Source: an uncultured Actinomycetota bacterium
GTDB taxonomy: Bacteria > Actinomycetota > Acidimicrobiia > Spongiisociales > UBA4744
NCBI GenBank assembly: GCA_963723165.1
Contig: CAVRPP010000003.1
Location: forward strand, 413,717 to 477,716
DNA length: 64,000 bases
Reading direction: 5' to 3'
The notes under the pieces are model-generated. The model was given only the letters and a program-made list of their open reading frames with translations. It did not search any database and was not told the origin of the DNA. A program made the translations under genes and the position numbers. How positions within the stretch are numbered: the first letter of the stretch is position 1; every line of letters starts with the position of its first letter. Below, one piece after another: positions 1 to 54,972 of this stretch.

Positions 1-300
1 TACGAGTCGGACACCGCAGGGTCGGTTGGAGCCCGCCAAAGGTACCGACCCTTCGTTGCTGCCGACAACGCCGCATTCCTACGGTGCGGGACCTGGTTCA
101 TCATGGAGAACAGCTGGCCAGAACCCAGCCGGGACAACGACGGAACCACCCGCGATTGGTTGGGTGTACGGGTCGTATTCGACCACGATTGGCTCACCGG
201 ATTCGCCTGGTTCTCCGGTTCGGTCTGCAACCGGGGGGCGTCGGGAACGTGCTGGTCCGCCGACACCGTCATGCACGTCGAGCCGGACCCGAATCCGTAG
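1..300 (+). CDS. TadE-like Flp-pilus minor pilin (pseudopilin), C-terminal fragment; 5' end lies outside the window
   Basis: Frame 1 is open from nt 1 to the stop at 298-300. The C-terminal motif (LGVRVVFDHDWLTGFAWFSG...MHVEPDPNP) parallels the C-termini of the downstream TadE-like proteins (THQYITGFLSFP...QLEPDVE; THQWFTGLFAST...RLEPRVFS). Confidence 0.45.
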   Translation, partial: YESDTAGSVGARQRYRPFVAADNAAFLRCGTWFIMENSWPEPSRDNDGTTRDWLGVRVVFDHDWLTGFAWFSGSVCNRGASGTCWSADTVMHVEPDPNP

Positions 301-440
301 CGGCTCCCGCTCGCCGGCAGCCGCATCGAGCGGCTCACATCGCTCCTCAGATCCTCAACATTCCGCTAAGGAAACTGGCATTTCTGCCGATGATCCTGGA
401 GTAGTTCGGGTGATGCGCGTCGCGCATTTGGAGCAGTTAT

Positions 441-995
441 ATGCGGAGCCGGTTTGGACAACGCAACGAGCGGGGCGCCACCATTGTCGAATTCGCCGTG
501 GTCTTCCCGCTCATCATCATGCTGGTCATGGGAATCGCCGAATTCAGCCTGGCCTTCAAGGACTGGTTGACGATCAGCCATGCCAGCCGCGAGGGCGCCA
601 GGGCCGGGGCGACCGCCGCCAACGACATCGCCGCCGACATGCAGGTCCTGACCGCCATCGAACAGGCCCTCACCGGAGGCGATTTGCGGGCGATCACCAA
701 TGTGGTGGTTTCCGACCCGGACGGGGGGCCGTCCACCACGTACGCCTATACCGGCAATCCGACCTGCGCATGGGCACCCTGCCCCGATCCCTACGCCGGG
801 GCTCCACCCCTCTACGCGCCTCCCTATGCCGCCCCCAACTACTTGCCGGAGACTCGCGACGTGACCGCTCCCAGCCCGGGCCGGATCAAAGTGTCGATCA
901 CGTTGACGCACCAGTGGTTCACGGGCCTATTTGCCAGCACGTCGGTCTGGACTTCCGACACGATCATGCGCCTCGAGCCGAGGGTGTTCTCATGA
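441..995 (+). CDS. TadE-like protein (Flp pilus assembly minor pilin/pseudopilin family)
   Basis: N-terminus ERGATIVEFAVVFPLIIMLVMGIAEFSLAF matches the TadE N-terminal hydrophobic signature (xVEFALVlPlll...G-EfGr). ATGA start/stop overlap with the next gene. Confidence 0.8.
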   Translation: MRSRFGQRNERGATIVEFAVVFPLIIMLVMGIAEFSLAFKDWLTISHASREGARAGATAANDIAADMQVLTAIEQALTGGDLRAITNVVVSDPDGGPSTTYAYTGNPTCAWAPCPDPYAGAPPLYAPPYAAPNYLPETRDVTAPSPGRIKVSITLTHQWFTGLFASTSVWTSDTIMRLEPRVFS

Positions 996-1594
996 GAAAG
1001 CGGCGCTGGTTCTCTCTCCGGCGGAGGACGAAGTCGGAACGAGGGGCCAGCCTCATCGAAGCGGCTCTCGTAGTCCCGTTGTTGATCCTGCTGGCGTTTG
1101 GAGCCGCAGAGTTTGGATTTGTGTTCCTGGACTTCCTCAATGTCTCCAGCGCCGCTCGAGAGGGCGCCCGGGTGGGCAGCGCCGTCGGCGACGCGGTCGA
1201 CGCCGACACGCTGATCTTGGGGGCGATTGCCGAGGCAACCGCCGATCTGGATAATTCCACAATTGAGGCCATCTGGGTTTTCGAAGCCAAGGCCAACGGT
1301 GACCCGGTCGACAATTGTGTGGTCGACACCTCAACCAACTACTTCACCTGTGCTGGTCCGACGAACAACATCAACATTTACGACTCGGCAGGCAACAAGC
1401 TGATCGGATCCTGGACCGCAACCGGCCGCAGGGTGACCGTCGGGCTCAATTGCCCGGCTGTACCGGCGGAGTGTCCGGACCGCCTCGGCGTACGAGTGGT
1501 ATTCACCCATCAATACATCACCGGATTCCTGTCCTTCCCGACCGGACCGTTCTCAGAGGATGCCGTGTTCCAGCTCGAGCCGGATGTGGAATGA
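992..1594 (+). CDS. TadE-like protein
   Basis: ERGASLIEAALVVPLLILLAFGAAEFGFVFLDFLNVSSAAREGARVG is a TadE-type N-terminus. The start ATG at 992 overlaps the stop of the previous gene, so they look translationally coupled. Confidence 0.75.
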   Translation: MRKRRWFSLRRRTKSERGASLIEAALVVPLLILLAFGAAEFGFVFLDFLNVSSAAREGARVGSAVGDAVDADTLILGAIAEATADLDNSTIEAIWVFEAKANGDPVDNCVVDTSTNYFTCAGPTNNINIYDSAGNKLIGSWTATGRRVTVGLNCPAVPAECPDRLGVRVVFTHQYITGFLSFPTGPFSEDAVFQLEPDVE

Positions 1595-1612
1595 CATGAG
1601 GGGAGCAACGCC

Positions 1613-3145
1613 ATGAGGAAACCGGCCATACGAGACGAGCAAGGTGCGATCCTGCCGTTTGTGGCGCTCGTGCTGGTGCTGCTGCTCGGGTTGGCCTCAT
1701 TCGCCGTCGATCTCGGCTGGTTCTACCTGAACTCGACTCGTATCCAAAGAGCCGCAGAGTCGGCTGCCCTCGCCGGGGTGATCCACATGCCCCAGGCCTA
1801 CGCGACGAAAGCCGAACCCACAGCTTTGCAGGTGGCAGCCAGCAACGGCTACGTCGACGGAGCAGACAACGCTGCCATCACGGTCACCGACGGACTCATC
1901 TGGGGTGAGCCAAACCAGATCGAAGTTGAAATCAGCGACACTGTTGACACCTTCTTGCTGCGCGTGCTCGGAAGGCAGAATCAGACGATCACTCGTAGCG
2001 CCGTCGCCGAATATGTGCCGCCCCTGCCCCTGGGGAGCCCTGAATCGCAGTTCGGGAACAGCTGCGACCCCAATGAGCCCGGCTGCACGGGCCAGCCCAA
2101 CTTCTGGGCGAACATCCACGGTCGATACACCGACACCCGGATGGGTGACGCCTACTCGTCCTACTGCGAGGACGGCCAGGGCAGCGGAAACGCCGGATGC
2201 GGCCAAAACGTCTCATGGAGGAACCCGGCCACGTCGACCAGGGGAGGCGGGTACCTCTACGGGATAGAAGGAACCGCCGGCGTCCAGTTTTCGATTCAAT
2301 TCCTCGACATCGTCCATCACAACATCTCCGGCTCCGAAACCACCAACGACAACTGGCGAACCGGCGACCGCGGGTGCGAGGCGTGGGGCGATAGCAATGC
2401 GGACTGCGGTCAGACGGTGCGGACCACGCTGTATGCCCCGGATCCTTCTCCGCTCAACCTCAACGGCAACATAGCAATCTGCACCAGGGACTGGGCCCCG
2501 GCCCCGCAGGTGCCGGAGAGCGACCCCTATACGTGGGACACCTGGTGCCCGGTCATTCCGCCGTCAGATGGACTCTACGTTCTGCAGATCGAAGCGCTCG
2601 ATCCGCTCGCTTCTCCAAACCCGTCTGCCGACGCTGGCTGGTCGGGGCTCAACCGTTACTCGGTGCGGGCGACCAACGGATCGCGACTCTACGGGCTCGG
2701 CGACATGTCCCTCTACAACAATGCCACCGGCACGACCAGCGACTTCTACCTCGCCGAGGTGAGCGATATCTACTCGGGCAAGGACTTCGTGGTCGAGCTC
2801 TACGATCCCGGCGAAGCCAACCCGGGCGGTTGGGTCGAGATCAAGTCTCCCGCCGGAGCAGGAGTCTGGAATACCTACGCCAGCTGCCGGATGAGCGTGC
2901 GGACCAGCGAGACAGCCTCGTGGTCGAGTCCCACCACTCTGGCTCCCTGCCGCTTCTTTGCAAACAACGACGGCGGAGCCAACGACTACAACGGCGACTG
3001 GATCAAACTGGAGATGACCCTCAGCAGCTACGTCTGCGGCCCCAACTGCTGGTGGAAGCTCAACTACAACTACTCCAACAACGTGAACGACACCACCACC
3101 TGGAAGGCCTACATCGTCGGCAACCCGGTGCACCTCCTCAAGTAG
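1613..3145 (+). CDS. TadG-like Flp pilus assembly protein (Tad_N domain, large W/N/G-rich extracellular region)
   Basis: N-terminus QGAILPFVALVLVLLLGLASFAVDLGWFYLNSTRIQRAAESAALAG matches the TadG N-terminal (Tad_N) signature (AVDxGxxY...aAdaAALAGa). AGGGGAG RBS upstream. Confidence 0.75.
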   Translation: MRKPAIRDEQGAILPFVALVLVLLLGLASFAVDLGWFYLNSTRIQRAAESAALAGVIHMPQAYATKAEPTALQVAASNGYVDGADNAAITVTDGLIWGEPNQIEVEISDTVDTFLLRVLGRQNQTITRSAVAEYVPPLPLGSPESQFGNSCDPNEPGCTGQPNFWANIHGRYTDTRMGDAYSSYCEDGQGSGNAGCGQNVSWRNPATSTRGGGYLYGIEGTAGVQFSIQFLDIVHHNISGSETTNDNWRTGDRGCEAWGDSNADCGQTVRTTLYAPDPSPLNLNGNIAICTRDWAPAPQVPESDPYTWDTWCPVIPPSDGLYVLQIEALDPLASPNPSADAGWSGLNRYSVRATNGSRLYGLGDMSLYNNATGTTSDFYLAEVSDIYSGKDFVVELYDPGEANPGGWVEIKSPAGAGVWNTYASCRMSVRTSETASWSSPTTLAPCRFFANNDGGANDYNGDWIKLEMTLSSYVCGPNCWWKLNYNYSNNVNDTTTWKAYIVGNPVHLLK

Positions 3146-3318
3146 GGAACGCGACTACGGTCCCCGTCTGCACATGCCCGGCCGAGGGTCTGCTCCTTGA
3201 AAACCCACGTCAAGTTTTCTCGCCGACCGCCGATGACTGTTGCGTGGCAGGACCTGCCACAGGCTGGGAGGCTTGATCGAGCACCTTTATTGGGTGGTCG
3301 AATGAGCTGAGGAGTGAC

Positions 3319-3768
3319 ATGAGGTCTCGAGACTCAAAACGACCCGGCCGTTTCTTCTCCGGTGACCGCGGCGCCGCCCTCATGGAAGCTGCGTTGGTCA
3401 TGCCTCTCATGCTGATGCTCACCGTCGGCGTGTGGACCACGGCCCGGGCCTGGAACGTGCACAGCACACTCGACCACGCTGCTCGGGAAGCCGCCCGCTA
3501 CGGAGCGACCGAGGTCCCCTGGGGCGGGACCTCTGCTGCAATCGTGAGAGCCGTTGCCGACCAGGAGCTGCAAGCTTCTGCCATTGTGCCTGCGGATGTC
3601 ACCACCGTCTGCATAGCCGAGGGAAGCGCTCCCTGCGGTTTGGGCGCCATCCCCGATGTCGACCAGGTCGCGGTGCAATTGAGCTGGGACAACTACCGGA
3701 TGGACTTCATCTTCTTCACGATATCCGTTGACCTCAAGGCATCGGCGGTATCCCGCTGGGAGGGCTGA
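3319..3768 (+). CDS. TadE-like protein (paralog of 7746-8255)
   Basis: RGAALMEAALVMPLMLMLTVGVWTTARAWNVHSTLDHAAREAARYGAT. Good RBS (GAGGAG). Confidence 0.8.
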   Translation: MRSRDSKRPGRFFSGDRGAALMEAALVMPLMLMLTVGVWTTARAWNVHSTLDHAAREAARYGATEVPWGGTSAAIVRAVADQELQASAIVPADVTTVCIAEGSAPCGLGAIPDVDQVAVQLSWDNYRMDFIFFTISVDLKASAVSRWEG

Positions 3769-3769
3769 G

Positions 3770-5110
3770 ATGAGGAACCTCATCCACCGGGGCAGAGGAG
3801 AACTCGGCTTCAGCGCTATTTGGACGGCCATCACCGCCTTCTTCGTGGTTGGGGTAGCCGCCCTGGCGGTGGACGTCTCGGGTTTCTACCGGGAAGCAGC
3901 GGCGGAGCAATCCGCTGCGGACATGACGTGCCTCGCCGGGGTGAGGGATCTTCCGCAATCTCCGAGCGACGCCCTTGATCATGCCGTTGCCATTGCCCGA
4001 CAGAACTGGTCCGAGGTGGCAGGTGCACCGGCAACGATCGACCTGGTGGCCAAGACGGCCATCCTCGATAACGGCAGCGGCGACGTCGTGACCATTGTGG
4101 CCGGTTACGGAGGACAGCCAACCAAGATGGCCGTGACCGTCACCCAACAAGCCCCAACCCAATTCGGAAAGGTACTCGGGGCAAACAGCACTCGGATAAC
4201 CCAGGAGGCCTTCTGCAAGGTGCAGGGTCTCCACATCGGTGATCTTCCGTTTGGCGCCATCCCCGGCGGCGGCTTCGACGGTGAACTCCAGACCGGCAGC
4301 CTCTGTGCAAACGGGAACTGCCGGCCCCTGGAATTGCCCCGCGAGGACGGCACCGGCGCCGGCGTCTGGTTCATCCGCAACGTTGCCATAGGTGGGCAGG
4401 CGCAGCTCCTGCCGGTCAAGACCGCAGTACCGCCCGCATCGCTCACCGCGTGCGCTCCGTTCTCCGGGCCGTGCACCATTGTCAATCAGGATCAGGGCGT
4501 CTCCACCGGGCAGCTCTCCGACGGTATCGCCCGGGGCAACGGGGCAGCCGCAGTAGATGGACGATTTGAGAATCCGACCACGAGTTCTGTGTTCAGCAGC
4601 CTGGCGGGCCGAATTCTCGACGGCGACACCCCTGAAGAGATCCTCGATCCCGACTACGTGCTCGGCAGTCCGGGTACGTTCTCCGGAATCACCGGCGGCG
4701 GCCTCGGCAGCCTCGGGCAACCTCCGGGATGGGATGTTGACATACACGGCCTCTGGTCGGGCATCGACCCGGATCGGACCTACTACTACAACGAAACGGT
4801 CGCCAAGTGCGACTCACCGCGGCTGGGCCGCATCCCGATCATCGCTCAGGTCGACTGGGGACCCGGGCAGCCCCTGAACCTGCCGGGCGGTAATAGTGAT
4901 CCGGTGAAGGTGGTCGGCTTCTACCTGATCGCCCTGGAAGATCCCAACGAATCAAGCGACTTCTTGAACCCCTCCGACTCCCTCAAGAACCTGTCGGGGA
5001 AGGTTCTCTGGTTGGGACCGGACGCCAGTTGCAGCGGCACGGGGGGCAAGATAAAGCCCTACCAACCCGGTGACGTCAAGGTGCTGCGCCTGGTCGACGA
5101 AACAGCCTGA
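3770..5110 (+). CDS. TadG-like Flp pilus assembly protein (paralog of the degraded copy at 8252-9864)
   Basis: ELGFSAIWTAITAFFVVGVAALAVDVSGFYREAAAEQSAADMTCLAGV is a Tad_N-type N-terminus. The ATG at 3770 overlaps the stop of the upstream TadE-like gene. Confidence 0.75.
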   Translation: MRNLIHRGRGELGFSAIWTAITAFFVVGVAALAVDVSGFYREAAAEQSAADMTCLAGVRDLPQSPSDALDHAVAIARQNWSEVAGAPATIDLVAKTAILDNGSGDVVTIVAGYGGQPTKMAVTVTQQAPTQFGKVLGANSTRITQEAFCKVQGLHIGDLPFGAIPGGGFDGELQTGSLCANGNCRPLELPREDGTGAGVWFIRNVAIGGQAQLLPVKTAVPPASLTACAPFSGPCTIVNQDQGVSTGQLSDGIARGNGAAAVDGRFENPTTSSVFSSLAGRILDGDTPEEILDPDYVLGSPGTFSGITGGGLGSLGQPPGWDVDIHGLWSGIDPDRTYYYNETVAKCDSPRLGRIPIIAQVDWGPGQPLNLPGGNSDPVKVVGFYLIALEDPNESSDFLNPSDSLKNLSGKVLWLGPDASCSGTGGKIKPYQPGDVKVLRLVDETA

Positions 5111-5291
5111 GCCCGCCGCGGCGGCCGATCTGATCTCCCGACCTGTGTCACATCTGCGTGCATTGACTAGTCAGAACATGCCGACCAGATTCACCACTTC
5201 ATACGACCGCCCTGGGCGTTATGATCACCACAGAACGTAGGCGGAAGAAGATCACGTTCACAACTTGACTCTCAATTGTCAAGAGGGGCTT

Positions 5292-5317
5292 CAGTTGCAG
5301 TTGCAGTTGCAGTTGCA
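5292..5317. repeat. (CAGTTG)4 hexamer microsatellite inside a low-GC intergenic region, overlapping a TGCAACTGCA palindrome
   Basis: CAGTTGCAGTTGCAGTTGCAGTTGCA, followed by GATTCTGCAACTCTGAAAGTGCAG. Lies in the gap between Tad modules II and III. Confidence 0.8.
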
Positions 5318-5364
5318 CAGCGATTCTGCAACTCTGAAAGTGCAGGCTGGGAGGCGGCGTAACA

Positions 5365-5871
5365 GTGCGTTGGGGGCAACGACTTCAAAGCAGAGACGAT
5401 CGAGGGGCATCCCTCGTTGAGTTCGCATTGGTCCTACCTCTCCTGCTGCTCATCCTGTTTGGCATAGCCGAAATCGGTCGGTTCGTGGCCACCAAAGAAG
5501 CGGTCAACACAGCGAGCCGCGAAGCGTCTCGCTATGGATCCGCAACGGGGATCAGCCCTACGGCAACCCCGCCGGTCCCCCGCTTCGCCGATTGCGACGG
5601 GATACGAGAAGCAGCTCGCGAGCTGGCAATCATTGTCACTTTCGATGACGCCGACATCACCATCAACTACGACAACGGAACAACCGGGACCATCATCGAG
5701 ACCTGCCCGGTCGGGGCGCAGGCCGACCCCGACAACATCGCCTTAGGTGATCGAATCGAAGTGACGGTCACCACAACGTTCACTTCGAGCATTCCGTTCA
5801 TCGGCCCGTTCTTGGGAACCATCAACGTGTCCTCAACGGATCGGCGCTCCATATTCGAGGGGTCGATATGA
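5365..5871 (+). CDS. TadE-like protein
   Basis: RGASLVEFALVLPLLLLILFGIAEIGRFVATKEAVNTASREASRYG. GTG start after a GGGAGG RBS. Confidence 0.8.
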   Translation: MRWGQRLQSRDDRGASLVEFALVLPLLLLILFGIAEIGRFVATKEAVNTASREASRYGSATGISPTATPPVPRFADCDGIREAARELAIIVTFDDADITINYDNGTTGTIIETCPVGAQADPDNIALGDRIEVTVTTTFTSSIPFIGPFLGTINVSSTDRRSIFEGSI

Positions 5872-6284
5872 GCGGCCGTTTGAGCGAAAGAGGCGCAGCA
5901 GCCGTCGAGATGGCGTTCGTGCTGCCGCTTCTGCTCCTGCTGGTGCTCGGGATAACCGATTTCTCTCGAGCGCTCCTCACCAATATCACCGTTGTTCAAG
6001 CGGCACAGGAGGGTGCTCTTTTCGCTTCTTACTTTCCAGGCGGCGACGTCCAGCAGCGGGTTGTCGACAGCGTCGACGACATCGCCATAACCCCTGGTGA
6101 TGTGACCAGCGCAGTCGACCTGGTCGCTTGCACGGCGACCGTCACGGTTGACCACGACTACCCGATGATCACTCCGGTGGGCAAGATCTTTCTCGGTGAC
6201 ACCGTCACGCTCTCCCATGCGGTGACGTCGACGATATTCGCCGCGGGTTGTGTACCCGCCACCACAACAACGACGACGCCATGA
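5868..6284 (+). CDS. TadE-like protein
   Basis: RGAAAVEMAFVLPLLLLLVLGITDFSRALLTNITVVQAAQEGALFA. Its start overlaps the previous stop. Confidence 0.75.
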   Translation: MSGRLSERGAAAVEMAFVLPLLLLLVLGITDFSRALLTNITVVQAAQEGALFASYFPGGDVQQRVVDSVDDIAITPGDVTSAVDLVACTATVTVDHDYPMITPVGKIFLGDTVTLSHAVTSTIFAAGCVPATTTTTTP

Positions 6285-6336
6285 ATCAGACGAGGCTGCA
6301 CCCGCAACGGGGGCAAGAGCAGAGGATGGGGATGGA

Positions 6337-7608
6337 ATGAGGAGACTCCACGGAGATGAGAGCGGCGCCGTTCTGGTCGTCGTTGCCGTTGCGATGTTGC
6401 TCGTGTTGGGAGTCGCTGCCTTGAGCGTCGATGGAGGCCGCGGACTCAATGAGGAGCGCGACTCGCAGAACGCCGCAGACCAGGCATCCCTGGCCGCTGC
6501 GTGGGCAGAGTGCAACGGCCGGGATCCTGTGGCGGCCGGCATCGCTTCGGCCGCTGCCAACGGGTTCGATAACAACGGCACAACGAACTCCGTGACGCTC
6601 ACGGACCTGGGCAGCGGTCGATTCGAAGTCGTGGTCTCGTCGACCATCGATGGCGGGTTTGCCAAAACGGTGGGGGCCAACACGATAACCGCCAGTTCCC
6701 AGGCCGTTGCCAGTTGCAGCATCACTACCGGATCGGGCGGTTTTGCCCTATTCGCAGGCTTCACCACGTGCGGGCCTGTCGACCTCAGCCTCACCGGGTC
6801 TTCGCAAACTATCAAAGGCGCGATCCATTCCAACGACCAGTTGAAGATCAACGGCAATGTCGCCTCGCCGAGCGAGGTCTGGGGACCGGTCACGGCCGCG
6901 GTCTCGGTGCAGCACTCCGGGGTCAACTTCTTCGAAACAGACGGGACCCCGTCGGCCCCCGGCACCAACCCAACGCAGGGCGTTGCCCTGGTTCCGCCCT
7001 ATCCGGTCAAGTATAAGATCGGCGACTATGCCCCCGGCTCGACCATCGCCTCCGCCGCCGGCAGCGATTATTTCGATTTCACCACCAACCAGAGCTGGTC
7101 CGATGTCAGTCTCGCCTCAGGCCTCTACTACGTCGACGGCAACGTCAGCCTCAACCGGGTGAGCGGCGAGCATGTAACCATCGTCGCTACGGGGCAGATC
7201 AGCCTGACGGGGACGAATACCGTCAACACCATCGTGGACTCGAGCGATCCGAACTACGGCCCGTACGATCCAAGCGGGCTGGCCCTCTTCAGTACCTACC
7301 GGAACGCAACAGCGTCGTGCAACCGCGATGCCATAACGTGGAGTGGCTCCAATCACGTCTGGAGCGGTATTCAGTATGCGCCCTTCGGCAACATCGATAT
7401 GAGCGGCGCCGACAATTCGACGTTCGACGGCAGCATCATCGCTTACAACATCAAGCTGAGCGGTTCTGCCATCAACATCACCTACAACGACGACTTCGAC
7501 GGCAACCCGAGCCACGGTGATCAACATCGAGGAGTAGCCGCCGGGAGCCTTCAAGTGTGGCAACGACAGCCGAAAACCCCTCATTCCGTCTGGTCATTCT
7601 GCCGATAA
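6337..7608 (+). CDS. TadG-like Flp pilus assembly protein
   Basis: The internal ATG at 6337 (MRRLHGDESGAVLVVVAVAMLLVLGVAALSVDGGRGLNEERDSQNAADQASLAAA) follows GGATGGGGATGGA. The Tad_N motif is present. The upstream part of the ORF overlaps the previous gene and is probably not translated. Confidence 0.7.
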   Translation: MRRLHGDESGAVLVVVAVAMLLVLGVAALSVDGGRGLNEERDSQNAADQASLAAAWAECNGRDPVAAGIASAAANGFDNNGTTNSVTLTDLGSGRFEVVVSSTIDGGFAKTVGANTITASSQAVASCSITTGSGGFALFAGFTTCGPVDLSLTGSSQTIKGAIHSNDQLKINGNVASPSEVWGPVTAAVSVQHSGVNFFETDGTPSAPGTNPTQGVALVPPYPVKYKIGDYAPGSTIASAAGSDYFDFTTNQSWSDVSLASGLYYVDGNVSLNRVSGEHVTIVATGQISLTGTNTVNTIVDSSDPNYGPYDPSGLALFSTYRNATASCNRDAITWSGSNHVWSGIQYAPFGNIDMSGADNSTFDGSIIAYNIKLSGSAINITYNDDFDGNPSHGDQHRGVAAGSLQVWQRQPKTPHSVWSFCR

Positions 7609-7745
7609 CTCTGTAGGTTGTCCGACGCCACGGAGAGTGAGAGTTTGTCTTCATTTCGACCACTCTATGCGGTATCATGCGGTGTGGGTGGAACGATCCC
7701 GACGGACCGAATGGTGGGATCGTTGCAGTCCCCTGGGAGGCAACG

Positions 7746-8255
7746 GTGATACGAGCACGATTTCTGAAGAAGCCACCGCGCCGTGAGCGCGGCGCCGCGC
7801 TCGTTGAGGCCGCCCTCGTGCTCCCGATGTTGTTGATGCTCACCTTTGGCATATGGACCACAGCCCGCGCCTGGAATGTTCACAACGTCCTCGATCACGC
7901 CGCCCGGGAAGCCGCCCGGTATGCCGCGACCACGTCGGATTCGCTCGCCATTCTCGACCCGATCGCTCGCGGCGAAGTTCTGGCCGCCAGCATCCGGTGG
8001 AGCGACGTATCGGGATGCTCGGCGATCATCGAGAGCGGTGCCGTCACTGAGAGCGCAACAACCGGAGGCGGCATCACGGTCGTCGACTCTCCGGTCGGTT
8101 ACTGCATCTCTCTCGGAGGTGGCGCGGGCCAGGACCCGACCACAGATGATCGAGCCCAGGTCAGGCTGGTCGTTCGGGACTTCCGGCTCGATTTCATTCT
8201 GTTCTCCTTCGAGGTCGATCTCACCGCCCAGGCCGTTTCGAGGCTAGAACCATGA
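7746..8255 (+). CDS. TadE-like protein (paralog of 3319-3768)
   Basis: GTG at 7746 sits 6 nt after GGGAGG. RGAALVEAALVLPMLLMLTFGIWTTARAWNVHNVLDHAAREAARYAAT is nearly identical to the N-terminus of the 3319 gene. Confidence 0.8.
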   Translation: MIRARFLKKPPRRERGAALVEAALVLPMLLMLTFGIWTTARAWNVHNVLDHAAREAARYAATTSDSLAILDPIARGEVLAASIRWSDVSGCSAIIESGAVTESATTGGGITVVDSPVGYCISLGGGAGQDPTTDDRAQVRLVVRDFRLDFILFSFEVDLTAQAVSRLEP

Positions 8256-9864
8256 TGTCCCGGCAGATGCACCGGCAGGAGCACGGCATTGCCGCCGTGT
8301 GGACGGCCGTCATCCTGCTGTTTCTCATCGGAGCCACCGCCCTCGCCGTTGATACGTCGGAGTTCTTCCAGCAGGCGCGCAGCCAGCAACGGGCAGTGGA
8401 CCTGGCCTGCCTGGCCGGTGCGGCCGAGTTGCCGGACGAATCCGGCCATGGCGGTCGCAGAAAGCGGCAGATTTCGCCCGGCCCAATCAGCGAGGCCTCA
8501 ACATGATCACTCCCGGCACACCGACCACCCGGGTCGGCAATGTTTCGACCTGGATAGCTGGAGATTTCGTTCTCGAGGTGGAAACCCCGGCCGTGTACAA
8601 CGGGGTTCCGAGCGCAAGCATCATGAGGGTCAGTCTCCGCCAGGAGGCCCCAACCCGGTTCGGGAAAGTTCTCGGCGCCGACAGCACCGGCATCCTGCAG
8701 GAAGCCTATTGCGGAGCATTCACTTCGGTCTCAACCGGGATCTTTCCCGGTCGGCGTCAGCACCGGGTTCCCGGGCGGCATCATCAAGTTCACCGAGAAC
8801 CAATGCAACGATTACCCCTCCACCGCATCCGGCAGCGGCGTCTGCAACTATCTCGAGGTTCCCCGGGTGGACGGACTAGGAGGCGGTGGGAGCAACGAAC
8901 TCACTTTCAACATGATGCTGGGCGCAGACCGGCCCATTACTTGCCTGGCAGCCGCTGCCGATGATCCATGCACCGCGGTCCCAGCTCGGTGCGACTCCGT
9001 CGCAGACGATGTTCCCTGCAACCAGGTGGTCTCGAAGTCGGGCAACATCGCCGGATCCGTGTACGACGGCTTGATCGGAGGCAAGACCGCCACCGACCAC
9101 CTCGGCCGGTTGGCCTACTCGGACGGCCGCACCCCGAACCCGGTCAATCCGCACGAGATGCCAACGAATGTGTGGACCTCGGTAGCCCGACCGACCGGAG
9201 CGCCGTCAGGCACGGTCGTGTGGAATACCAACCTCATGTCGAACCCATCGGACGACCTCGTGGCCAGCTGCAGCCCGGCCGCCTCAACCGCCGACTACTT
9301 CATCGACGATGACACCGACCCGCTGACGCCCAATCCCGAAGACCCGCCGACCACCTGTGACGACGGGGATATCGACGATCAGCCCGTCTACCCGATCCCG
9401 CCCGACATCAGCTATGTGAACCCGCCCCAGTTTGAGATCTCCGAGTACGACTGTCAGCGATCTGCGGCTCATCATCGTGCCTGCCGGAGTCTGGGGACCC
9501 AAGGGCGCCGGGCCCTCCAACCCCCGCCTCTTCACCATCACCGGGTTTGAGATTGCCTACCTCCTGGATCCAATCGTTGAGGACGACACGGACATCTCGG
9601 GACGGCCCGATAGCCGACGACAAGCGACAGGGCAACCATATCGGCGGGCGACACCCGCCTGCTCTGGTGGAACCACCAGAACAACAACGGCGGCAGCTGG
9701 CAGGAGGGCGACGACCGGACCACGAACCTGGCCCAGATGTCCGCCTTCAGCGTGCGGTTTGCTCCCGACGCCTCAGGTCATCGGCGGATGCCCGCTCAAC
9801 CCGGTTCCGCCCGGGCTCGGGGAATCTACTCCCCAGTGAGATCAAGCTGGTAGCAGGCCCTTAA
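8252..9864 (+). pseudogene. TadG-like gene disrupted by at least 3 frameshifts (paralog of 3770-5110)
   Basis: Homology to 3770-5110 runs through four different frames. These are 8252-8506 (Tad_N motif AVDTSEFFQQARSQQRAVDLACLAGAAEL), 8503-8750 (...APTRFGKVLGADSTGILQEAYCGAF... versus ...APTQFGKVLGANSTRITQEAFCKV...), 8744-9470 and 9432-9640 (LFTITGFEIAYLLDPIVEDD versus VKVVGFYLIALEDPNESSD). The shifts fall near 8500, 8745, 9470 and 9640. Confidence 0.55.
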
Positions 9865-9890: not shown

Positions 9891-10771
9891 ATGAAAACCC
9901 TGCCCCACCTCGTTACCGCCCTCATCTCCCCCTTCACCAGATCCGGCCACATCGATCTCGACGCCCACCGCCACAACCTCGAGGCCCTCAACCAACAAGG
10001 AATCAAGGGGTTTCTGATCGGCGGATCGACCGGGAGAAGGACCCTATCTCGAAACCGGCGACCGCCTCTTCCTGGTCGACGCCGCCCGACGTACATTGGG
10101 GAAACGGCCTTTCCTGCTCGCCGGTATCGCCGGCGAATCTTCTCGCTCCGCCCTTGCCCAGACCGAAGAAGCCACCGAGGGCGGTGCCGATGCAGTGCTG
10201 GTGGTGACCCCCACCACGATGGTTCGCGGCAACCACTCAGCAGTGGCCGCGTATCTTCGAAGATCTGGCAGACGCCGCCCGTGTTCCGGTCTTTCTCTAT
10301 TCCGTCCCGGCGGTGACCGGCTACACGCTCCCCGTGGAAACGGCGATCAAACTGTCCCGGCATCCCAACATCACCGGCATGAAGGATTCAGGCGGCGATC
10401 CGGTGGCCATGACTCGTCTTGCAGAGCAAACCGTCGACGACTTCGTCCTGATGACGGGTTCGTCGAAAGCGGTGAGGCTCTGCATGACTGCGGGAGCCCA
10501 TGGAGCCATCACCGCCAGCTCGAACTACCTGCCGGAACTCACCGGCCGGGTGGTGACGGCCGCCCGCAGAAACCTCCTGACCGCCGGCGAACTCCAGTCG
10601 ACACTGACCAGACTCTCGACCGCGGTCGAGGCGTACCGGGTGCCCGGGGTCAAAGCCGCAGCAGGAATGACCGGGCTCCGACCGGGACATCTGCGCAAAC
10701 CGCTCCGACCCGTGCCGCCCAAGGACAAGAGAGCAATCGCAAAGGTGCTGAAAGACGCCGGAATTCTCTAG
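9891..10771 (+). pseudogene. Dihydrodipicolinate synthase (DapA) family gene carrying two +1 frameshifts
   Basis: The N-terminus LVTALISPFTRSGHIDLDAHRHNLEALNQQGIKGFLIGGSTG and the C-terminus (...ITGMKDSGGD...SNYLPELTGRVVTAARRN...) are DapA-like. The reading frame changes at about 10033 (GGGAGAAGG) and about 10258 (TATCTTCG). Removing one base at each site restores ...GSTGEGPYLETGDRLFLVDAA... and ...AAYFEDLADAARVPVFLYSVPAVTGYTLPVETAIKL.... Confidence 0.6.
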
Positions 10772-10921: not shown

Positions 10922-11299
10922 ATGGCAGTCAAGTTTCTTTCGGAGGAGTGGGCGAAAGAGGTAACGGATACCTTGCGCGCCCACGAGGACTTCAAGGCAT
11001 CTGCCGACATGAGCGTGCAGTTCGTGGTGAGCGATGCCCCCGACGGCGAAGTGAAGTTCTACCTGGACGCCACCAGCGACGAACCTGTTCAGTCGTTGGG
11101 CGCACTCGATAACGCCGACGTCACCATCACCAGCAATTACGAGACGACCAGCGCCATCTTCAGCGGTGAACTCAACACCCAGATGGCCTTCATGACGGGC
11201 AAGATCAAGGTCAACGGCAACATGGCCAAGTTGATGACCCAGCAGGCTGCTCTGGGCCATTGGGCTTCTGCCGTTGCAGCCCTCGACATCGATTTCTGA
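10922..11299 (+). CDS. SCP2 sterol-binding domain protein
   Basis: MAVKFLSEEWAKEVTDTLRAHEDFKASADMSVQFVVSDAPDGEVKFYLDATSDEP...MAFMTGKIKVNGNMAKLMTQQ is an SCP2-type fold sequence. AAAGGAGA RBS. Confidence 0.7.
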   Translation: MAVKFLSEEWAKEVTDTLRAHEDFKASADMSVQFVVSDAPDGEVKFYLDATSDEPVQSLGALDNADVTITSNYETTSAIFSGELNTQMAFMTGKIKVNGNMAKLMTQQAALGHWASAVAALDIDF

Positions 11300-11356: not shown

Positions 11357-11641
11357 TTACTTCTTGCGCTTGGCGACTTCGTCCTTCAGGCCTTTGCCGG
11401 CCGAGAACTTGGGCACAAACTGGGTCTTGATACGGATCGATTCACCGGTCGCAGGATTGATGCCCTTGCGTCCCTGGCGCTTGCGCGACTCGAACGATCC
11501 GAATCCAACGATCTGAACCCGGTCGCCCTTCTTCATCGCCTTGGTGATCGAACCGAAGACGCTGTCGACTGCTACTTTCGCAGCGGCTTTGGTGATGCCG
11601 GCATCGGCCGCAACCTGATCGATCAATTCGCCTTTGTTCAT
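11357..11641 (-). CDS. hupB: HU family DNA-binding protein with a Lys/Ala-rich C-terminal tail
   Basis: MNKGELIDQVAADAGITKAAAKVAVDSVFGSITKAMKKGDRVQIVGFGSFESRKRQGRKGINPATGESIRIK is a canonical HU sequence. The actinobacterial-type basic tail is present. Confidence 0.9.
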   Translation of the reverse strand: MNKGELIDQVAADAGITKAAAKVAVDSVFGSITKAMKKGDRVQIVGFGSFESRKRQGRKGINPATGESIRIKTQFVPKFSAGKGLKDEVAKRKK

Positions 11642-11748: not shown

Positions 11749-12684
11749 CTACAGTTCGAGTTGGTGCAGTTCGTCGACCTTCTCTTTCACCGCCGCAGCA
11801 GCCTCGGCCAGAGCCGCGACTTCTTCGTCGGTCAGATCCATGACGACGACTTCCTCAACACCGTTTTTGCCGAGCTTGGCCGGTACACCCAGGTACACAT
11901 CGTTGATGCCGTACTCACCCGAAACCCACGCGCACACCGGCATCATGGCCTTCTCGTCGTTGATAATGGCCGCCACCATCCTGGCAGCCGCCGATGAGGG
12001 GGCGTAGTAGGCGCTGCCGGTCTTGAGTAGAGCGACGATCTCGCCTCCCCCGCCACGGGTCCGATCCAGGATGGCCTGAATCTCTTCCTCGCTGAGATAG
12101 TCGGTGAGCGGCTTGCCGGCCACCGAGCATTGCGACGGGACCGGGACCATCGTCGGACCATGACTTCCCAGAGTCAGAGCGTCAACCTCGAGAATGTCCA
12201 CGCCGGTAGCCTCGGACAGGAAGTGGGCGAGACGGGAACTGTCCAGAATGCCTGCCTGGCCGAGGACCTTGCTATGCGGCAATCCGGAAACCTCAGCCGC
12301 CAGAGTGGTCATCTGATCGAGAGGGTTCGTCACAATGACCAGAGTTGCCTCAGGCGAAAACTTGATGATCTGCTGGGTCACATCCTTGACGATCTTGGCG
12401 TTCACCTCGAGAAGATCCATCCGGCTCATGCCGGGCTTTCTCGGCAATCCCGCCGTGATCACCACGACGTCGCTGCCGGCCGTGTCCGCGTAATCGTTGG
12501 TTCCTACGACCAGTGTCCGATACTTCTCGACGGGACGGGACTGATTCATGTCGAGGGCCAAACCCTGCGGCAGACCTTCGACGATGTCGGTCATCACCAC
12601 CTCGTCGACGATGTCCATCGCTGCCAAACGCTGGGCCGTAGTTGACCCGTATTTGCCCGCCCCGACGACCGTGACCTTGCTCAT
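11749..12684 (-). CDS. mdh: Malate dehydrogenase (LDH-like MDH family)
   Basis: MSKVTVVGAGKYGSTTAQRLA...ITAGLPRKPGMSRMDLLEVNAKIV...LDSSRLAHF. ATG at 12684. The upstream part of the ORF is a spurious extension. Confidence 0.9.
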   Translation of the reverse strand: MSKVTVVGAGKYGSTTAQRLAAMDIVDEVVMTDIVEGLPQGLALDMNQSRPVEKYRTLVVGTNDYADTAGSDVVVITAGLPRKPGMSRMDLLEVNAKIVKDVTQQIIKFSPEATLVIVTNPLDQMTTLAAEVSGLPHSKVLGQAGILDSSRLAHFLSEATGVDILEVDALTLGSHGPTMVPVPSQCSVAGKPLTDYLSEEEIQAILDRTRGGGGEIVALLKTGSAYYAPSSAAARMVAAIINDEKAMMPVCAWVSGEYGINDVYLGVPAKLGKNGVEEVVVMDLTDEEVAALAEAAAAVKEKVDELHQLEL

Positions 12685-12792
12685 ACCCACACTCCTTGGC
12701 TGGTCGGTCCTGTGGGTTAAGGCTAGTCCCGCCACGGTGGCCCTCGGCCGCCGGAGAAGCAAGTTGACCGCCAGTCCTGCTATCAAGGAACC

Positions 12793-13962
12793 GTGCGCCG
12801 TTTGCTCCTCCCTATCTCGTTGATTTCGGCCTTATCGCTGACGGCGTGCGGCCTGCTGCCGGCTGCAACTACCGACAACGGCTCCGTCCAGACGCCCTCA
12901 TCAACCACCCTCGGCATAGATCTGAACATGGACGACCCGGAGTTGCTTCAACGCCTCGGATCCCCGCCTTTCGAAGACGTCACCTGGACGAGAACCATCG
13001 GCGGCATACCCCTGCTGGGAGCTACCGGTTCGGCAGACCAGCGTGAGCTCGAGCTGATCGCTGCGGCTTTTGAGGAAGTTCCAGCAGCCCTGTCGGCAGA
13101 GGGGCAGCCCCGAAACCTCATCCGTATCCAATCGGTCGGCGGTGAGGAAGCCATCGGCAAAGCAGTCGCATTTACCAAGGGACCCGACATCTACCTCGTC
13201 GACCGGACCTTCGCTCCCAACGATGAAGACACCACTCGCCTCGAATTGACCAGGGCTCTCATCCACGAACTCGCCCACGTCGCCCAGTACCGGGCTCTCG
13301 AGGCCACCTACGTCGAGGCGGCACTGGCCGGCGAGGTCGAGCAGGTCGATCCGGCCGCGGGTTCGAGCCTTGTGCAGTCGTTTGCGGCATCGGTCGGTTG
13401 GATCGATCAGAACCCCGACCCCTTGGAGGCCTCGTGGTTTCTCCCCACCACGATCGAGGCCTCAACTGATTACGGGCGGACCGGAGCCGGCGAGGACATG
13501 GCCGAGGCCGTCTCCATGGTCGTGCTTGGACGCTCGAATTGGATTCCTGCCGCGCATACACGATGGGTGGAGCAGTGGCTGGGAAGAGCGTCTGCATCGC
13601 TGGCGAGCGGCAAGCCGTGGGCGCCGGCCGGATCCCGTGAGGTCCTCTCCAAGGATCCGCTCTACGACGAGACCTCACTCACCGCCGGCGCCTTCCGGTT
13701 CGAACACATCGAACCGCTCTACTTCAGCCTCCCGGCAGAAACCAGTCCTCACGCTGGTCTGGCCGCCGAGATTCAGGTCCGGCTGCTGGAGCGCCGTATC
13801 AGTGGCGTGCTTGCCCTCACCGATGACGACCGGTTGCCCCACTACGCCGGTATGTTCACCAGGAAGGACGGGGTGAACCTATGGGTGGAGCTGTGGGACT
13901 TCCGGGAAGCCACGGGATTCAGAACCGCCGATCCGATCCTGACCTACGTCATGCTGTGGTAG
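12793..13962 (+). CDS. Lipoprotein of unknown function with an HExxH motif (possible secreted zinc metallopeptidase-like protein)
   Basis: Signal peptide with lipobox LSLTAC. HELAHVAQY motif. No family was recognised with confidence. Confidence 0.5.
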   Translation: MRRLLLPISLISALSLTACGLLPAATTDNGSVQTPSSTTLGIDLNMDDPELLQRLGSPPFEDVTWTRTIGGIPLLGATGSADQRELELIAAAFEEVPAALSAEGQPRNLIRIQSVGGEEAIGKAVAFTKGPDIYLVDRTFAPNDEDTTRLELTRALIHELAHVAQYRALEATYVEAALAGEVEQVDPAAGSSLVQSFAASVGWIDQNPDPLEASWFLPTTIEASTDYGRTGAGEDMAEAVSMVVLGRSNWIPAAHTRWVEQWLGRASASLASGKPWAPAGSREVLSKDPLYDETSLTAGAFRFEHIEPLYFSLPAETSPHAGLAAEIQVRLLERRISGVLALTDDDRLPHYAGMFTRKDGVNLWVELWDFREATGFRTADPILTYVMLW

Positions 13963-31305: not shown

Positions 31306-31779
31306 GTGTCGGTACAAGACACGTACATCGACTCGTTCACCGAGTTTGTGGAGAGCGCAGAACCGAGGTTGCGGCGGGCCCTGGTGGCTCGTTACGGCTA
31401 CCAGGAAGGCAGAGAAGCGGTGGCAGAGGCCCTCGCCTATGCATGGGAGCACTGGGAGCGGGTCGCCGGTATGGAAAACCCGGTTGGCTACCTCTACCGA
31501 GTGGGACGCACCCGGGGAACCTGGGGATTTCGGCGACCGGTGCAACTCCCCCGCGCGGAGGCTTCGGCCGACCCGTCCTGGTTCGAGCCGGCGCTCCCCG
31601 CGGCAGTTGAGCACCTCCCGAGCAAACAACGGACCGCCGTGATGCTCGTCAAAGCCCACGGCTACACGTACGACGAAGCCGCCGACGTCATGGGCATTGC
31701 CCGGACCTCGGTTCAGAAACATGTTGAGCGGGCCCTGCAGAAACTCCGCAAAACCCTTGAGGTGACAAGCGATGCATGA
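31306..31779 (+). CDS. ECF-type RNA polymerase sigma factor
   Basis: GTG start 5 nt after GGAGG. Region 2 (YLYRVGRTR) and region 4 HTH (SKQRTAVMLVKAHGYTYDEAADVMGIARTSVQKHVERALQKLR) are present. Confidence 0.7.
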   Translation: MSVQDTYIDSFTEFVESAEPRLRRALVARYGYQEGREAVAEALAYAWEHWERVAGMENPVGYLYRVGRTRGTWGFRRPVQLPRAEASADPSWFEPALPAAVEHLPSKQRTAVMLVKAHGYTYDEAADVMGIARTSVQKHVERALQKLRKTLEVTSDA

Positions 31780-33238
31780 CCTTGACGATCAACTCCGCGA
31801 GTTCGGTTCATTCGTAGATGACGCCGTCGAAACCGTGCGAGCGACGGAGGTCACGATCCCTCACGCCACGCCGGTTCACCAACCGCCGCGGCACCGCCTA
31901 GCGATCGCCGGCGCAGCCGCCGCCGTGGTCGTGCTATTCATCGCTGCCGCGGTTGTGCTTGGCCCCTTCGGGTCGGAAGCGCCCTATGTGGAGGAACCGA
32001 TCACGGCTTCTATCACAACCACCACGAGCGAGGCTGCGGCTCCGGCATCGCCGGCGATGTCGTGGACCCGCGTCGAGTCGGATGCGTTCGGTGGTTCCGA
32101 CGACCAGTTGATCAGAGACATCGCGATCGGCGGACCCGGGTTGGTGGCCGTCGGAGCAGACGGCTCGGGTGGCGATCTGGATGCCGCCGTGTGGTACTCG
32201 ACCGACGGGCGCGTTTGGACGAGAGTCCCGCACGACGAGCTGGTCTTCGGAGGACCCGGAGACCAATACCCGATGGCAGTGGCGGCAGGCGGGCCGGGGT
32301 TCGTGGCTGTAGGAGATGACAGCACGCCGGATGGAACAGCCGGCATCACGGCCGTTTGGACCTCTGAGGATGGGATCACCTGGAGCCGAGTTCTCCACGA
32401 CGAAAGTGCTTTCGGCGGCGAGGAACAAGTCAACGTCTTCATGAAGGATGTCACCGCTTTCGGGTCGGGTCTCGTGGCCGTGGGGTTGGAATGGAGGGAC
32501 AGCCAGGCAGACGCGGTGGCTTGGACCTCTCCCGACGGGATCATCTGGGAGCGAGTCCCGCCCAACGAGACGGTATTCGGTGGGCCCCACGATCAGGCCA
32601 TGTGGGCAGTGGTGCCAGCCGGACCCGGACTGGTAGCGGTCGGACAAGGCGGTAACATCTTCAACGCTGGCCCCGACCAACCGGCGGCCGTTTGGGTGTC
32701 GACCGACGGGCGCGACTGGTCCCGGGTGCCCGACCAGGCAGCGCTCCTCAGCGGATTCTCACAGCAAGGTGGCGAAGGCCCTGCAGGGTTCACCGGGGAT
32801 TGGGCCCGCATGGACGATGTGGCGATCGGCGGTTCCGGCGTTGTGGCGGTTGGCCGAGTCGGCAGATGTGAGGTTCAGTGCGATGAAGACGGCGCCGCCT
32901 GGACCTCCACCGACGGTATCACCTGGCAACGGAGCCTCGTCGAAACAGTCGACGGTGTCCGAATCGACGACATGTGGGCGGTGGCCACCCTCGATGATGT
33001 GCAAGTCGGTGTCGGCAACGGCTCGGACAGCAACGGGGAATTCGGACCAGCCGTGGCATGGACATCGAACGACGGAGGCGACACCTGGAGTCGAGTTCCC
33101 CACAGCGGCACCACCTTTGGAAAGATCTCCGAAGGGCCCAACTTAATGTTTGCTGCGGTCGAGTTCGGACCCGATCTGATCGTGGTGGGGAGTTGGGGAT
33201 CGAATGCCGCGGTGTGGATAGCAACCATCGAAGAGTGA
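31772..33238 (+). CDS. Putative anti-sigma factor: single-pass membrane protein with an extracytoplasmic BNR (Asp-box) repeat beta-propeller-like domain
   Basis: Start overlaps the sigma gene stop (ATGCATGA). A TM helix at residues ~52-75. There are at least 7 repeats of the S-x-D-G-x-x-W-x-R-V type (YSTDGRVWTRV, TSEDGITWSRV, TSPDGIIWERV, VSTDGRDWSRV, TSTDGITWQRS, TSNDGGDTWSRV). Confidence 0.55.
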   Translation: MHDLDDQLREFGSFVDDAVETVRATEVTIPHATPVHQPPRHRLAIAGAAAAVVVLFIAAAVVLGPFGSEAPYVEEPITASITTTTSEAAAPASPAMSWTRVESDAFGGSDDQLIRDIAIGGPGLVAVGADGSGGDLDAAVWYSTDGRVWTRVPHDELVFGGPGDQYPMAVAAGGPGFVAVGDDSTPDGTAGITAVWTSEDGITWSRVLHDESAFGGEEQVNVFMKDVTAFGSGLVAVGLEWRDSQADAVAWTSPDGIIWERVPPNETVFGGPHDQAMWAVVPAGPGLVAVGQGGNIFNAGPDQPAAVWVSTDGRDWSRVPDQAALLSGFSQQGGEGPAGFTGDWARMDDVAIGGSGVVAVGRVGRCEVQCDEDGAAWTSTDGITWQRSLVETVDGVRIDDMWAVATLDDVQVGVGNGSDSNGEFGPAVAWTSNDGGDTWSRVPHSGTTFGKISEGPNLMFAAVEFGPDLIVVGSWGSNAAVWIATIEE

Positions 33239-37251: not shown

Positions 37252-37378
37252 AACGCTTCAGCCTCCAGCTGAGCAGCCGGTTTGCTGCCCATATGAGCTA
37301 TCGACAGGTATCCCGGCGAGGTTGAGCCGTTCGAACCGACTCCCCCGCGTCGGCGGGCAGAGAATGGGTGCCCGGCGA

Positions 37379-53324: not shown

Positions 53325-54972
<1,648 letters not shown>

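Follow-up and report, generated by a model that had tools for sequence, protein, structure and literature searches.

Among the type IV filaments described so far, the Kil pilus of Myxococcus xanthus most resembles the system reported here. It is a Tad-like pilus with four KilL/KilM/KilN (TadE/F/G-type) gene clusters lying away from the machinery genes, and interchangeable tips have been proposed for it (Herrou et al. 2025, PMC12075869); these tips, Kil tip1-4, are reported as restricted to the Myxococcota (PMC12075869). Here, we describe a 64-kb stretch of DNA (the window) from an uncultured soil Acidimicrobiia bacterium, of which positions 1-9864 of the + strand carry a row of genes for Tad (type IVc, Flp) minor pilins. 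The region probably belongs to a tandem array with five or more minor-pilin cassettes that give one pilus alternative tips.

The likeness between the array and the Kil system is one of architecture. Both have several paralogous TadE/TadF/large-TadG cassettes per genome (at least five here) set apart from the machinery, and both include a large G-type pilin with a variable C-terminal domain that lacks a close solved homolog, along with Cys-rich extracellular domains. However, the host of the array is a monoderm actinomycete that is not known to be a predator. Its cassettes stand head-to-tail at a fixed site and number up to about eight, whereas Myxococcus has four dispersed clusters. The cassette formats also vary (E-E-G, E-G and E-G-E, where E is a small TadE-type pilin gene and G a large TadG-type pilin gene), and no type III secretion system (T3SS*) partner is known for the array.

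With canonical tad loci the array shares the Pfam families, a G/xxxxE[FS]-type site (the slash marks the predicted processing point) in TadE/F proteins of about 150 amino acids (aa), and a TadG with PF13400 and a single N-terminal helix. In a canonical locus, however, every gene is single-copy and belongs to the machinery operon, whereas the array has at least seven E and at least four G genes and is detached from the machinery; its G proteins also greatly exceed in size the small Rv3654c-like protein that actinobacterial tad operons encode. A second point of comparison is provided by the GspK-GspI-GspJ complex of the type II secretion system (T2SS) and the PilY1/minor-pilin priming complexes of type IVa pili (T4aP), in which two or three proteins form a complex whose largest subunit lacks the glutamate at position 5 (Glu5) and caps the filament. 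These belong to a different filament class than Tad/T4c, no sequence homology to them was detected, and the T2SS has neither the multiplicity nor the tandem layout. A third is ComZ, the tip-associated competence pilin of Thermus thermophilus (PDB 6qvi; PMC6561018). It belongs to the T4aP/competence system of a diderm, and no sequence similarity to G3, one of the array's large pilins, was found, the likeness between the two being one of predicted fold.

A full-text search of the literature on Tad pili in Acidimicrobiia found nothing specific. The TadE and TadG families are already known, as is the concept of multiple Tad tips. By the literature search, a tandem fixed-site array of up to about eight cassettes in a monoderm class appears to be undescribed, as do a universal core cassette whose 500-aa pilin lacks a solved relative and the rapid exchange of cassettes within a genus.

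Gene content and age of the array

Eleven genes, all on the + strand, fill positions 1-9864: seven are TadE-like (six complete and one cut by the window edge) and four TadG-like, and they are arranged in modules numbered 0 and I-IV. Pfam gathering cut-offs are 22.9 bits for TadE (PF07811), 22.3 bits for Tad (PF13400) and 22.1 bits for Tad_C. Comparisons were made with a set of 78 loci, one genome per GTDB species and every one an uncultured metagenome-assembled genome (MAG), annotated with profile hidden Markov models built for the purpose and with reference proteins. These loci (numbered, like the other loci examined, with L) are counted as Acidimicrobiia by their G1-family content and synteny, some of the records being labelled as other phyla. 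The genes of the array and its downstream flank are as follows.

1-300, + strand: E0 (module 0), C-terminal 99 codons of a TadE-like gene, from the translation
441-995, + strand: E1 (module I), 184-aa TadE-type minor prepilin, leader ...NERG/ATIVEF, PF07811 54 bits
992-1594, + strand: E2 (module I), 200-aa TadE-type minor prepilin, leader ...SERG/ASLIEA, PF07811 46 bits
1613-3145, + strand: G1 (module I), 510-aa TadG-type pilin, leader ...DEQG/AILPF, no Glu5, PF13400 38.4 bits
3319-3768, + strand: E3 (module II), 149-aa TadE-type minor prepilin, PF07811 52.8 bits
3770-5110, + strand: G2 (module II), 446-aa TadG-type pilin, PF13400 20.1 bits, slightly under the cut-off
5365-5871, + strand: E4 (module III), 168-aa TadE-type minor prepilin, GTG start, PF07811 54.5 bits
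5868-6284, + strand: E5 (module III), 138-aa TadE-type minor prepilin, PF07811 53.8 bits
6337-7608, + strand: G3 (module III), TadG-type pilin with a predicted beta-solenoid domain, PF13400 36.5 bits
7746-8255, + strand: E6 (module IV), 169-aa TadE-type minor prepilin, PF07811 57.5 bits
8252-9864, + strand: G4 (module IV), TadG-type pilin, frame-broken in the assembly, PF13400 25.0 bits once frame-corrected
9891-10771, + strand: dapA-like (DHDPS) gene, found by tblastn with the DHDPS of L004 and L005; downstream boundary of the array, in a position conserved across loci
10922-11299, + strand: SCP2-family gene (PF02036), conserved downstream flank
11357-11641, - strand: HU, after SCP2
11749-12786, - strand: mdh, after HU

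Gene calls agree with an earlier note on this DNA, made from the sequence alone, in its count of at least seven TadE-like and four TadG-like genes, its coordinates and its (TadE)1-2-TadG layout. The family assignments of that note also hold: E1-E6 score 46-57 bits against PF07811, all over the cut-off, and Pfam likewise supports G1, G3 and the corrected G4, while G2 is placed through its 62 database homologs at E <= 0.001, several of which have a precomputed PF13400 match or the source name TadG. Within modules, genes overlap by ATGA or 4 nucleotides (nt) or lie 1-52 nt apart, and the gaps between modules measure about 140-250 nt. The ATGA overlaps visible in the sequence (E1/E2, the 4-nt overlap of E4/E5, and E6/G4, with E3 and G2 spaced by 1 nt) make the translational coupling suggested earlier likely.

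The partial gene described at the left edge is real as well. E0 has no Pfam match because the window holds only its C-terminus; a 1.3-kb JGI contig (L001), identical to the window where the two overlap, lengthens it by 159 nt and still falls short of the N-terminus. E0 shares 49% identity with the third E-G-E gene of L005 and 43% with that of L004, and its orthologs, 69-86% identical, lie in the E-G-E modules of L007-L012. As the counterpart of the third E-G-E gene, E0 therefore marks a fifth module, module 0, directly upstream of position 1, and is the last gene of that module. The content upstream of position 1 is deduced from the orthologous loci L012 and L007-L009, where the order is sdhB, E-G-E, then E-E-G. 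L012 (JAOTUY010000008.1), an independent Illumina MAG, has intact orthologs of all 11 genes in the same order, preceded by sdhB and then the E-G of module 0. Orthologs are 79-90% identical for E1 and 80-97% for E6; those of E5 reach 96% in L006 (CAMYKI010000047.1) and 75% in L012, and for E4 only L012 has an ortholog that reaches 60% identity (81%). The 254-nt gap that precedes module III contains a perfect (CAGTTG)x4.3 microsatellite at 5292-5317, 48 nt ahead of the start of E4; it is missing at the orthologous site of L012 and might conceivably influence expression.

The earlier note missed the frameshifts in G4 and G3, just as it missed the fifth module upstream and the class-wide fixed position described below. 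G4 carries eight frameshifting insertions, at about 8439, 8458, 8743, 9456, 9608-9611 (4 nt), 9633, 9775 and 9823, which were mapped by tblastn and DNA alignment to L003 and L006, where the G4 orthologs are intact (532 and 535 aa, respectively). Apart from the one of 4 nt, the insertions mapped in G4, G3, the dapA-like gene and the glyoxalase gene are each of a single base. The frame-corrected G4 has 528 aa and no internal stop, and its ratio of nonsynonymous to synonymous substitutions (dN/dS) is 0.12 against L003, compared with 0.08-0.11 for intact genes. G3 has an extra base at 7509, after which its last ~33 codons are read in the wrong frame; the real product has about 401 aa and ends in ...VINIEE. 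The dapA-like gene is broken by extra bases at 10032 and 10254, which brings the frameshifting insertions between 7509 and 10254 to 11, clustered at 7.5-10.3 kb. Further along the window, a glyoxalase gene has an extra base at 14258, and groEL beside groES (53325-54951) is split into pieces of 395 aa and 165 aa. Every mapped break is an insertion in the window relative to L006, those of G4 also relative to L003, and reading frames are conserved on both sides of the insertions.

So many broken frames, both here and elsewhere in the window, could mean that the multiplicity of modules is an artefact made of mis-assembled duplicates, or that it reflects decay, with paralogs becoming pseudogenes. 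We consider both very improbable indeed. The modules share no near-identical DNA, and the same five-module order recurs with intact genes in L012, an assembly independent of the window. As to decay, the pattern of insertions only, the intact orthologs and a corrected G4 that is stop-free at a dN/dS like that of intact genes favour consensus error, to which the split groEL also points; the breaks are read in this way because the nearest relatives stem from a long-read metagenome project, their records bearing 'contig_NNNN' names and MFD isolate labels. As judged from the sequence, the apparent pseudogenes of this stretch are thus most likely long-read assembly consensus errors. Pseudogenisation of G4 and of the dapA-like gene was judged unlikely on the same grounds.

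The longest DNA repeat in the array measures 149 nt at 76% and joins the N-termini of E3 and E6, whose products are 44% identical overall with near-identical N-termini. E paralogs are at most ~48% identical, G2 and the intact G4 ortholog of L003 (L3_G532) are 34% identical, and G1, G2 and G3 are alike only across their N-terminal ~130 residues. Modules II and IV are thus paralogous, as had been proposed. There is no high-identity DNA repeat, and therefore neither an assembly duplication nor a recent amplification; a recent duplication or assembly collapse, tried as an explanation, was ruled out by the same best repeat. By their divergence, the modules are old, diverged paralogs and not the tandem amplification that the earlier note saw in them. 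Related genomes have arrays with about 1-8 large G-type open reading frames (ORFs) per locus. The idea of phase or antigenic switching in the earlier note finds no footing either: no recombinogenic or inverted repeats and no recombinase for phase variation or recombination were found in the array, and every module is under purifying selection, with dN/dS of 0.08-0.12 against its ortholog. A scan for promoters and terminators gave counts no higher than those of shuffled controls.

Protein anatomy and the proposed pilus tip

In a motif scan, all six complete E proteins have a class III leader that ends in ...[ED][RK]G, after which come A-x-x-x-E and a hydrophobic helix. Throughout the Acidimicrobiia loci, 304 of 321 E-type ORFs show G-x4-E and a hydrophobic helix with [ED][RK] before it, the leader reading [ED][RK]G/A-[TSA]-L-V-E. 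This G/xxxxE-type leader corresponds to the TadV-type site known from TadE/TadF (as cited in PMC4322843). The G-type ORFs (161 examined) have the [DE][RK]G leader too, with Gly(-1) in 97%, and their position +5 is Leu, Trp or Phe, never Glu. Within a type IV filament, the Glu5 of one subunit pairs with the N-terminus of an adjacent one, and a Glu5-less subunit, for example GspK, caps the filament. The GspK-type hallmark, a missing Glu5 in an otherwise pilin-like N-terminus, is present in the array G proteins. At sub-threshold level only, NCBIfam models liken the E proteins weakly to Rv3655c-type and the G N-termini to Rv3654c-type pseudopilins.

A search with G1 gave 464 homologs, which match over the full length at 45-87% identity; those with a named source belong to MAGs of Acidimicrobiia and other Actinomycetota and to one unclassified 'bacterium' bin. 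The AlphaFold2 model of G1 (pLDDT 87.9) has an alpha1 helix at residues 13-56, a pilin-like head to ~134 and a beta-rich region at 164-509, and the C-terminal domain is predicted to be made of tandem beta-sandwiches like those of carbohydrate-binding modules (CBMs). Ten Cys are conserved in 90-100% of 56 aligned sequences, which fits an extracellular, disulfide-bonded protein. No close solved fold was found for G1, and PDB sequence searches came back empty. For G3, the predicted C-terminal domain is a beta-solenoid like ComZ and ice-binding protein, and its predicted fold matches that of ComZ, a tip pilin. In the monomer models, alpha1 leads into a pilin head, with a distal domain beyond it.

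By the sequence of their C-terminal regions, 176 G-type ORFs divide into about six families, three of which occur in the window. The C-terminal folds differ, and different cassettes would therefore show different folds on the same kind of pilin stalk. The long, divergent extracellular regions pointed out earlier do differ at the C-termini of G1, G2 and G3, but they are not free-floating hypervariable sequence, since the G1 family is 42-89% identical over its full length across the class. Many proteobacterial TadG proteins end in a vWA or Tad_C domain. A vWA domain, which the earlier note had thought worth looking for there, gave no Pfam match in the array G proteins, for which a beta-sandwich (G1) and a beta-solenoid (G3) are predicted; Tad_C is found only below threshold, in G1 (18.2 bits vs 22.1).

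Each cassette encodes one or two TadE/TadF-type prepilins, with the class III leader [DE][RK]G/A-x-x-x-E, and one large TadG-type pilin that has the same leader and conserved Gly, a hydrophobic residue at the place of Glu5, a long alpha1, a pilin head and an extracellular domain of 250-400 residues. In the mechanism that we propose, a TadV-type peptidase would cleave the cassette proteins, and the two or three proteins of one cassette would then join via their alpha1 helices into a priming complex. With the Flp filament growing beneath it, the complex would come to lie at the pilus tip, where the Glu5-less G protein may be the topmost subunit, by analogy with GspK in GspK-I-J. The cassettes would place differing domains on the tip, such as the predicted CBM-like sandwiches of G1 or the ComZ/ice-binding-protein-like solenoid of G3, and one machine, presumably encoded elsewhere in the genome to which the window belongs, could in this way be given several binding specificities.

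Class-wide position, cassette turnover and the Tad machinery

Almost all of the 78 loci follow one frame: whiB (-), sdhC-A-B (+), the G1-family E-E-G, 0 to ~7 more modules, the dapA-like gene, SCP2, mdh (-) and nadC. The additional modules take the formats E-E-G, E-G-E or E-G, and sometimes one more stands between SCP2 and mdh. In the 38 loci with full flanks, large G-type ORFs number 1 (2 loci), 2 (16), 3 (13), 4 (3), 5 (2), 6 (1) or 7 (1), counts that are approximate because long-read MAGs contain indel errors; L053, whose locus is a little shorter and does not enter this tally, has eight. The module I/G1 family is universal, being present in every array found with a G1-family probe. Modules II-IV, at 40% identity or more, occur in only 2-6 of 82 loci. 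The array is a class-wide, positionally fixed feature of the Acidimicrobiia and is not peculiar to the genome of the window.

Within the genus of the window SdhA is 94-96% identical, yet the content of the array varies between 3, 4, 5 and 6-7 modules, and its third slot holds unrelated cassettes:

L007-L009: modules 0, I, IV
L003: modules I, II, an unrelated E-G523, IV
L002: module I duplicated, II, other ORFs, IV
L012 and the window: modules 0, I, II, III, IV
L006: modules III (lacking E4) and IV, the DNA on the left side being unrelated

L006 matches the window at 90.6% over 11.8 kb, and this homology begins abruptly inside the 3' part of E4 (window 5746, L006 6857). To the left of that point, L006 has a sigma/anti-sigma pair and an MFS transporter in place of modules 0-II; the break inside the array is either a rearrangement breakpoint or a sign of a chimeric contig.

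A bolder reading, which we put forward tentatively and think possible but not the likelier outcome, is that in soil Acidimicrobiia an exchangeable array at the fixed sdh-mdh site lets one monoderm Tad pilus show up to about eight structurally unrelated tip domains, among them CBM-like sandwiches and a ComZ-like solenoid, and that even members of one genus acquire, drop and exchange cassettes. Such an array would amount to an undescribed class-wide system of tip customising, in which G1 would be the universal core tip with a fold unlike solved structures.

The core Tad machinery is missing from the window, in agreement with the earlier note. A Pfam scan of most ORFs of at least 140 residues between 10.8 and 60.9 kb (ORFs at 60.9-64 kb were left out) gave no match to T2SSE, T2SSF, peptidase A24, Flp or RcpC, and tblastn of the whole window with Acidimicrobiia CpaB, TadZ, TadA (Walker A motif GAGKTS), TadB, TadC and a candidate pilin gave no real match. 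Flp-like small ORFs were found neither in the inter-module gaps nor in loci L001-L084, and no peptidase A24 gene was seen in the scanned window ORFs or in any fetched locus. The array does not lie inside a tad locus: the window has no machinery, and in relatives none directly adjoins the array.

At a somewhat greater distance the machinery does appear. In L086, reached via a G2 homolog, an RcpC/CpaB gene and the first part of a TadZ-like gene lie ~8 kb upstream of the array, and the same pair is present in L069, L083 and L025; in L083 the gene that follows it is a T2SSE ATPase (92.8 bits). The TadA of L083, used as a probe in JGI metagenomes, led to 80 loci. One of these, L104 (JGI contig Ga0255047_10000040), has a full operon of cpaB (SAF/RcpC), tadZ (CbiA/ParA-like), tadA (T2SSE), tadB and tadC (both T2SSF), followed by a 60-aa candidate pilin and three small proteins, two of them with weak TadE or Tad matches. 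An array module (a 172-aa E and a 549-aa G with PF13400) lies 6 kb from this operon, divergent from it across whiB-sdhCAB, and L101, L103 and L129 show the same linkage. A monoderm-type tad operon is therefore present in Acidimicrobiia that bear the array, and one clade of the class has operon and array as neighbours, 6-8 kb apart. The 60-aa ORF of L104 (13063-13245), right after tadC, has the leader ...TDDRG/LNTAELMGNAALAIAALVVIWG (...DDRG/LNTAEL) and is a candidate major Flp-type pilin; it matches no Pfam model, Flp_Fap included.

This linkage bears on the idea that the cassettes serve some other type IV-filament-like device without Tad machinery, for example a secretion or DNA-uptake pseudopilus. 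The machinery is absent within 10 kb of the array in 78 G1-anchored loci, as it is from the 64-kb window, and the predicted likeness of G3 to ComZ hints at DNA binding, both of which would suit such a device. However, the filament machinery near the array, where seen, is a tad operon, and none of the fetched loci showed a T2SSE-type ATPase of another kind. Moreover, the TadE/Tad Pfam families and the G/xxxxE[AF] site are specific to Tad-type minor pilins, and a separate device of this kind seems distinctly improbable.

Several points weigh against alternative tips on a Tad pilus. The view of the window's own genome is limited to these 64 kb, which have no Tad machinery, and in its closest relatives the 5 kb beyond whiB hold TatA, a sigma/anti-sigma pair and other genes, with no tad operon. 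Small TadE/TadG-like pseudopilins are already encoded in the canonical Acidimicrobiia tad operon itself; the array proteins therefore come on top of these, and that they join the same filament is an assumption. The structure models cover single chains, and the cassettes may be used together instead of alternatively. Finally, TadE and TadF were not detected in sheared pili of Micrococcus luteus, for which the authors preferred a structure at the pilus base (PMC4322843).

The main rival explanation builds in part on this last result. According to it, the E and G proteins are parts of the cell envelope: G would be anchored in the membrane by an uncleaved helix, as a surface-displayed binding protein or a pilus anchor, E would form a base or wall-spanning pseudopilus, and all modules would be used together. 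G proteins without Glu5 and a tad operon with separate small pseudopilins of its own are in keeping with this, and TadG of Aggregatibacter has reportedly been proposed to act as a membrane anchor. Yet G proteins keep Gly(-1) and the [DE][RK]G leader at 97% conservation, just as E proteins do, and an uncleaved anchor would have no need of them. The missing Glu5 is also the hallmark of tip subunits such as GspK, and the predicted fold of G3 matches a tip pilin. The gain and loss of modules between congeneric genomes, too, fits accessory alternatives better than obligatory parts. We regard an envelope role as unlikely. Alternative tips on one machinery, already among the suggestions of the earlier note, are the probable reading, in best accord with the anatomy, both structure models and the comparisons between loci. 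Gene families, motifs, predicted monomer folds, purifying selection, fixed position, cassette turnover and the linkage to a tad operon in relatives are observed; cleavage, the joining into heteromers, the place at the tip, alternative use and the ligands are inferred.

Other genes of the window and significance of the array

Beyond the array, Pfam matches identify icd, folD, purH/N, sucCD, tal, uvrD, a CheA-like kinase cluster, guaA/B, trpS, leuA, groES/EL and tsaD. The CheA-like cluster, at 36373-40554 on the - strand, is a chemosensory-type module in a region without flagellar or pilus genes and consists of:

36373-37251, - strand: histidine kinase
37379-38377, - strand: response-regulator protein
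38374-40554, - strand: CheA-like hybrid kinase with Hpt, HATPase, CheW and receiver domains

An ORF of 460 aa at 45563-46945 (- strand) has a signal-like N-terminus, about 11 tandem 30-aa repeats (CVACHISHNGRVDCTSCHGTDHTPTAVDAE), 22 CXXCH motifs and a C-terminal hydrophobic segment, and its local G+C is below that of the surroundings; it is a candidate repetitive multihaem c-type cytochrome. Two ORFs of coding-type composition, 12793-13962 (+ strand, 389 aa) and 31772-33238 (+ strand, 488 aa), have no Pfam match at E <= 1e-5. The former is conserved beside mdh in L006, where it has a faint eCIS_core match; the latter follows an ECF-type sigma factor gene and may be an anti-sigma partner.

The functional specialisation of Tad pili is poorly understood, least of all in monoderms, and the only worked case of interchangeable tips is the Kil pilus of the predatory Myxococcus, published in 2025. 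The locus described here suggests the same tip principle in an abundant uncultured class of Actinomycetota, with tidier genetics: tandem cassettes at one site, a core and fast-turning accessories. This makes it easy to follow cassette content through metagenomes and to relate it to habitat. The G1 family, with hundreds of members and no solved relative, and the ComZ-like G3 family are targets for structural and binding studies. If cassettes do customise the tip, this might serve the attachment to polysaccharides or particles, the capture of DNA or contact between cells.

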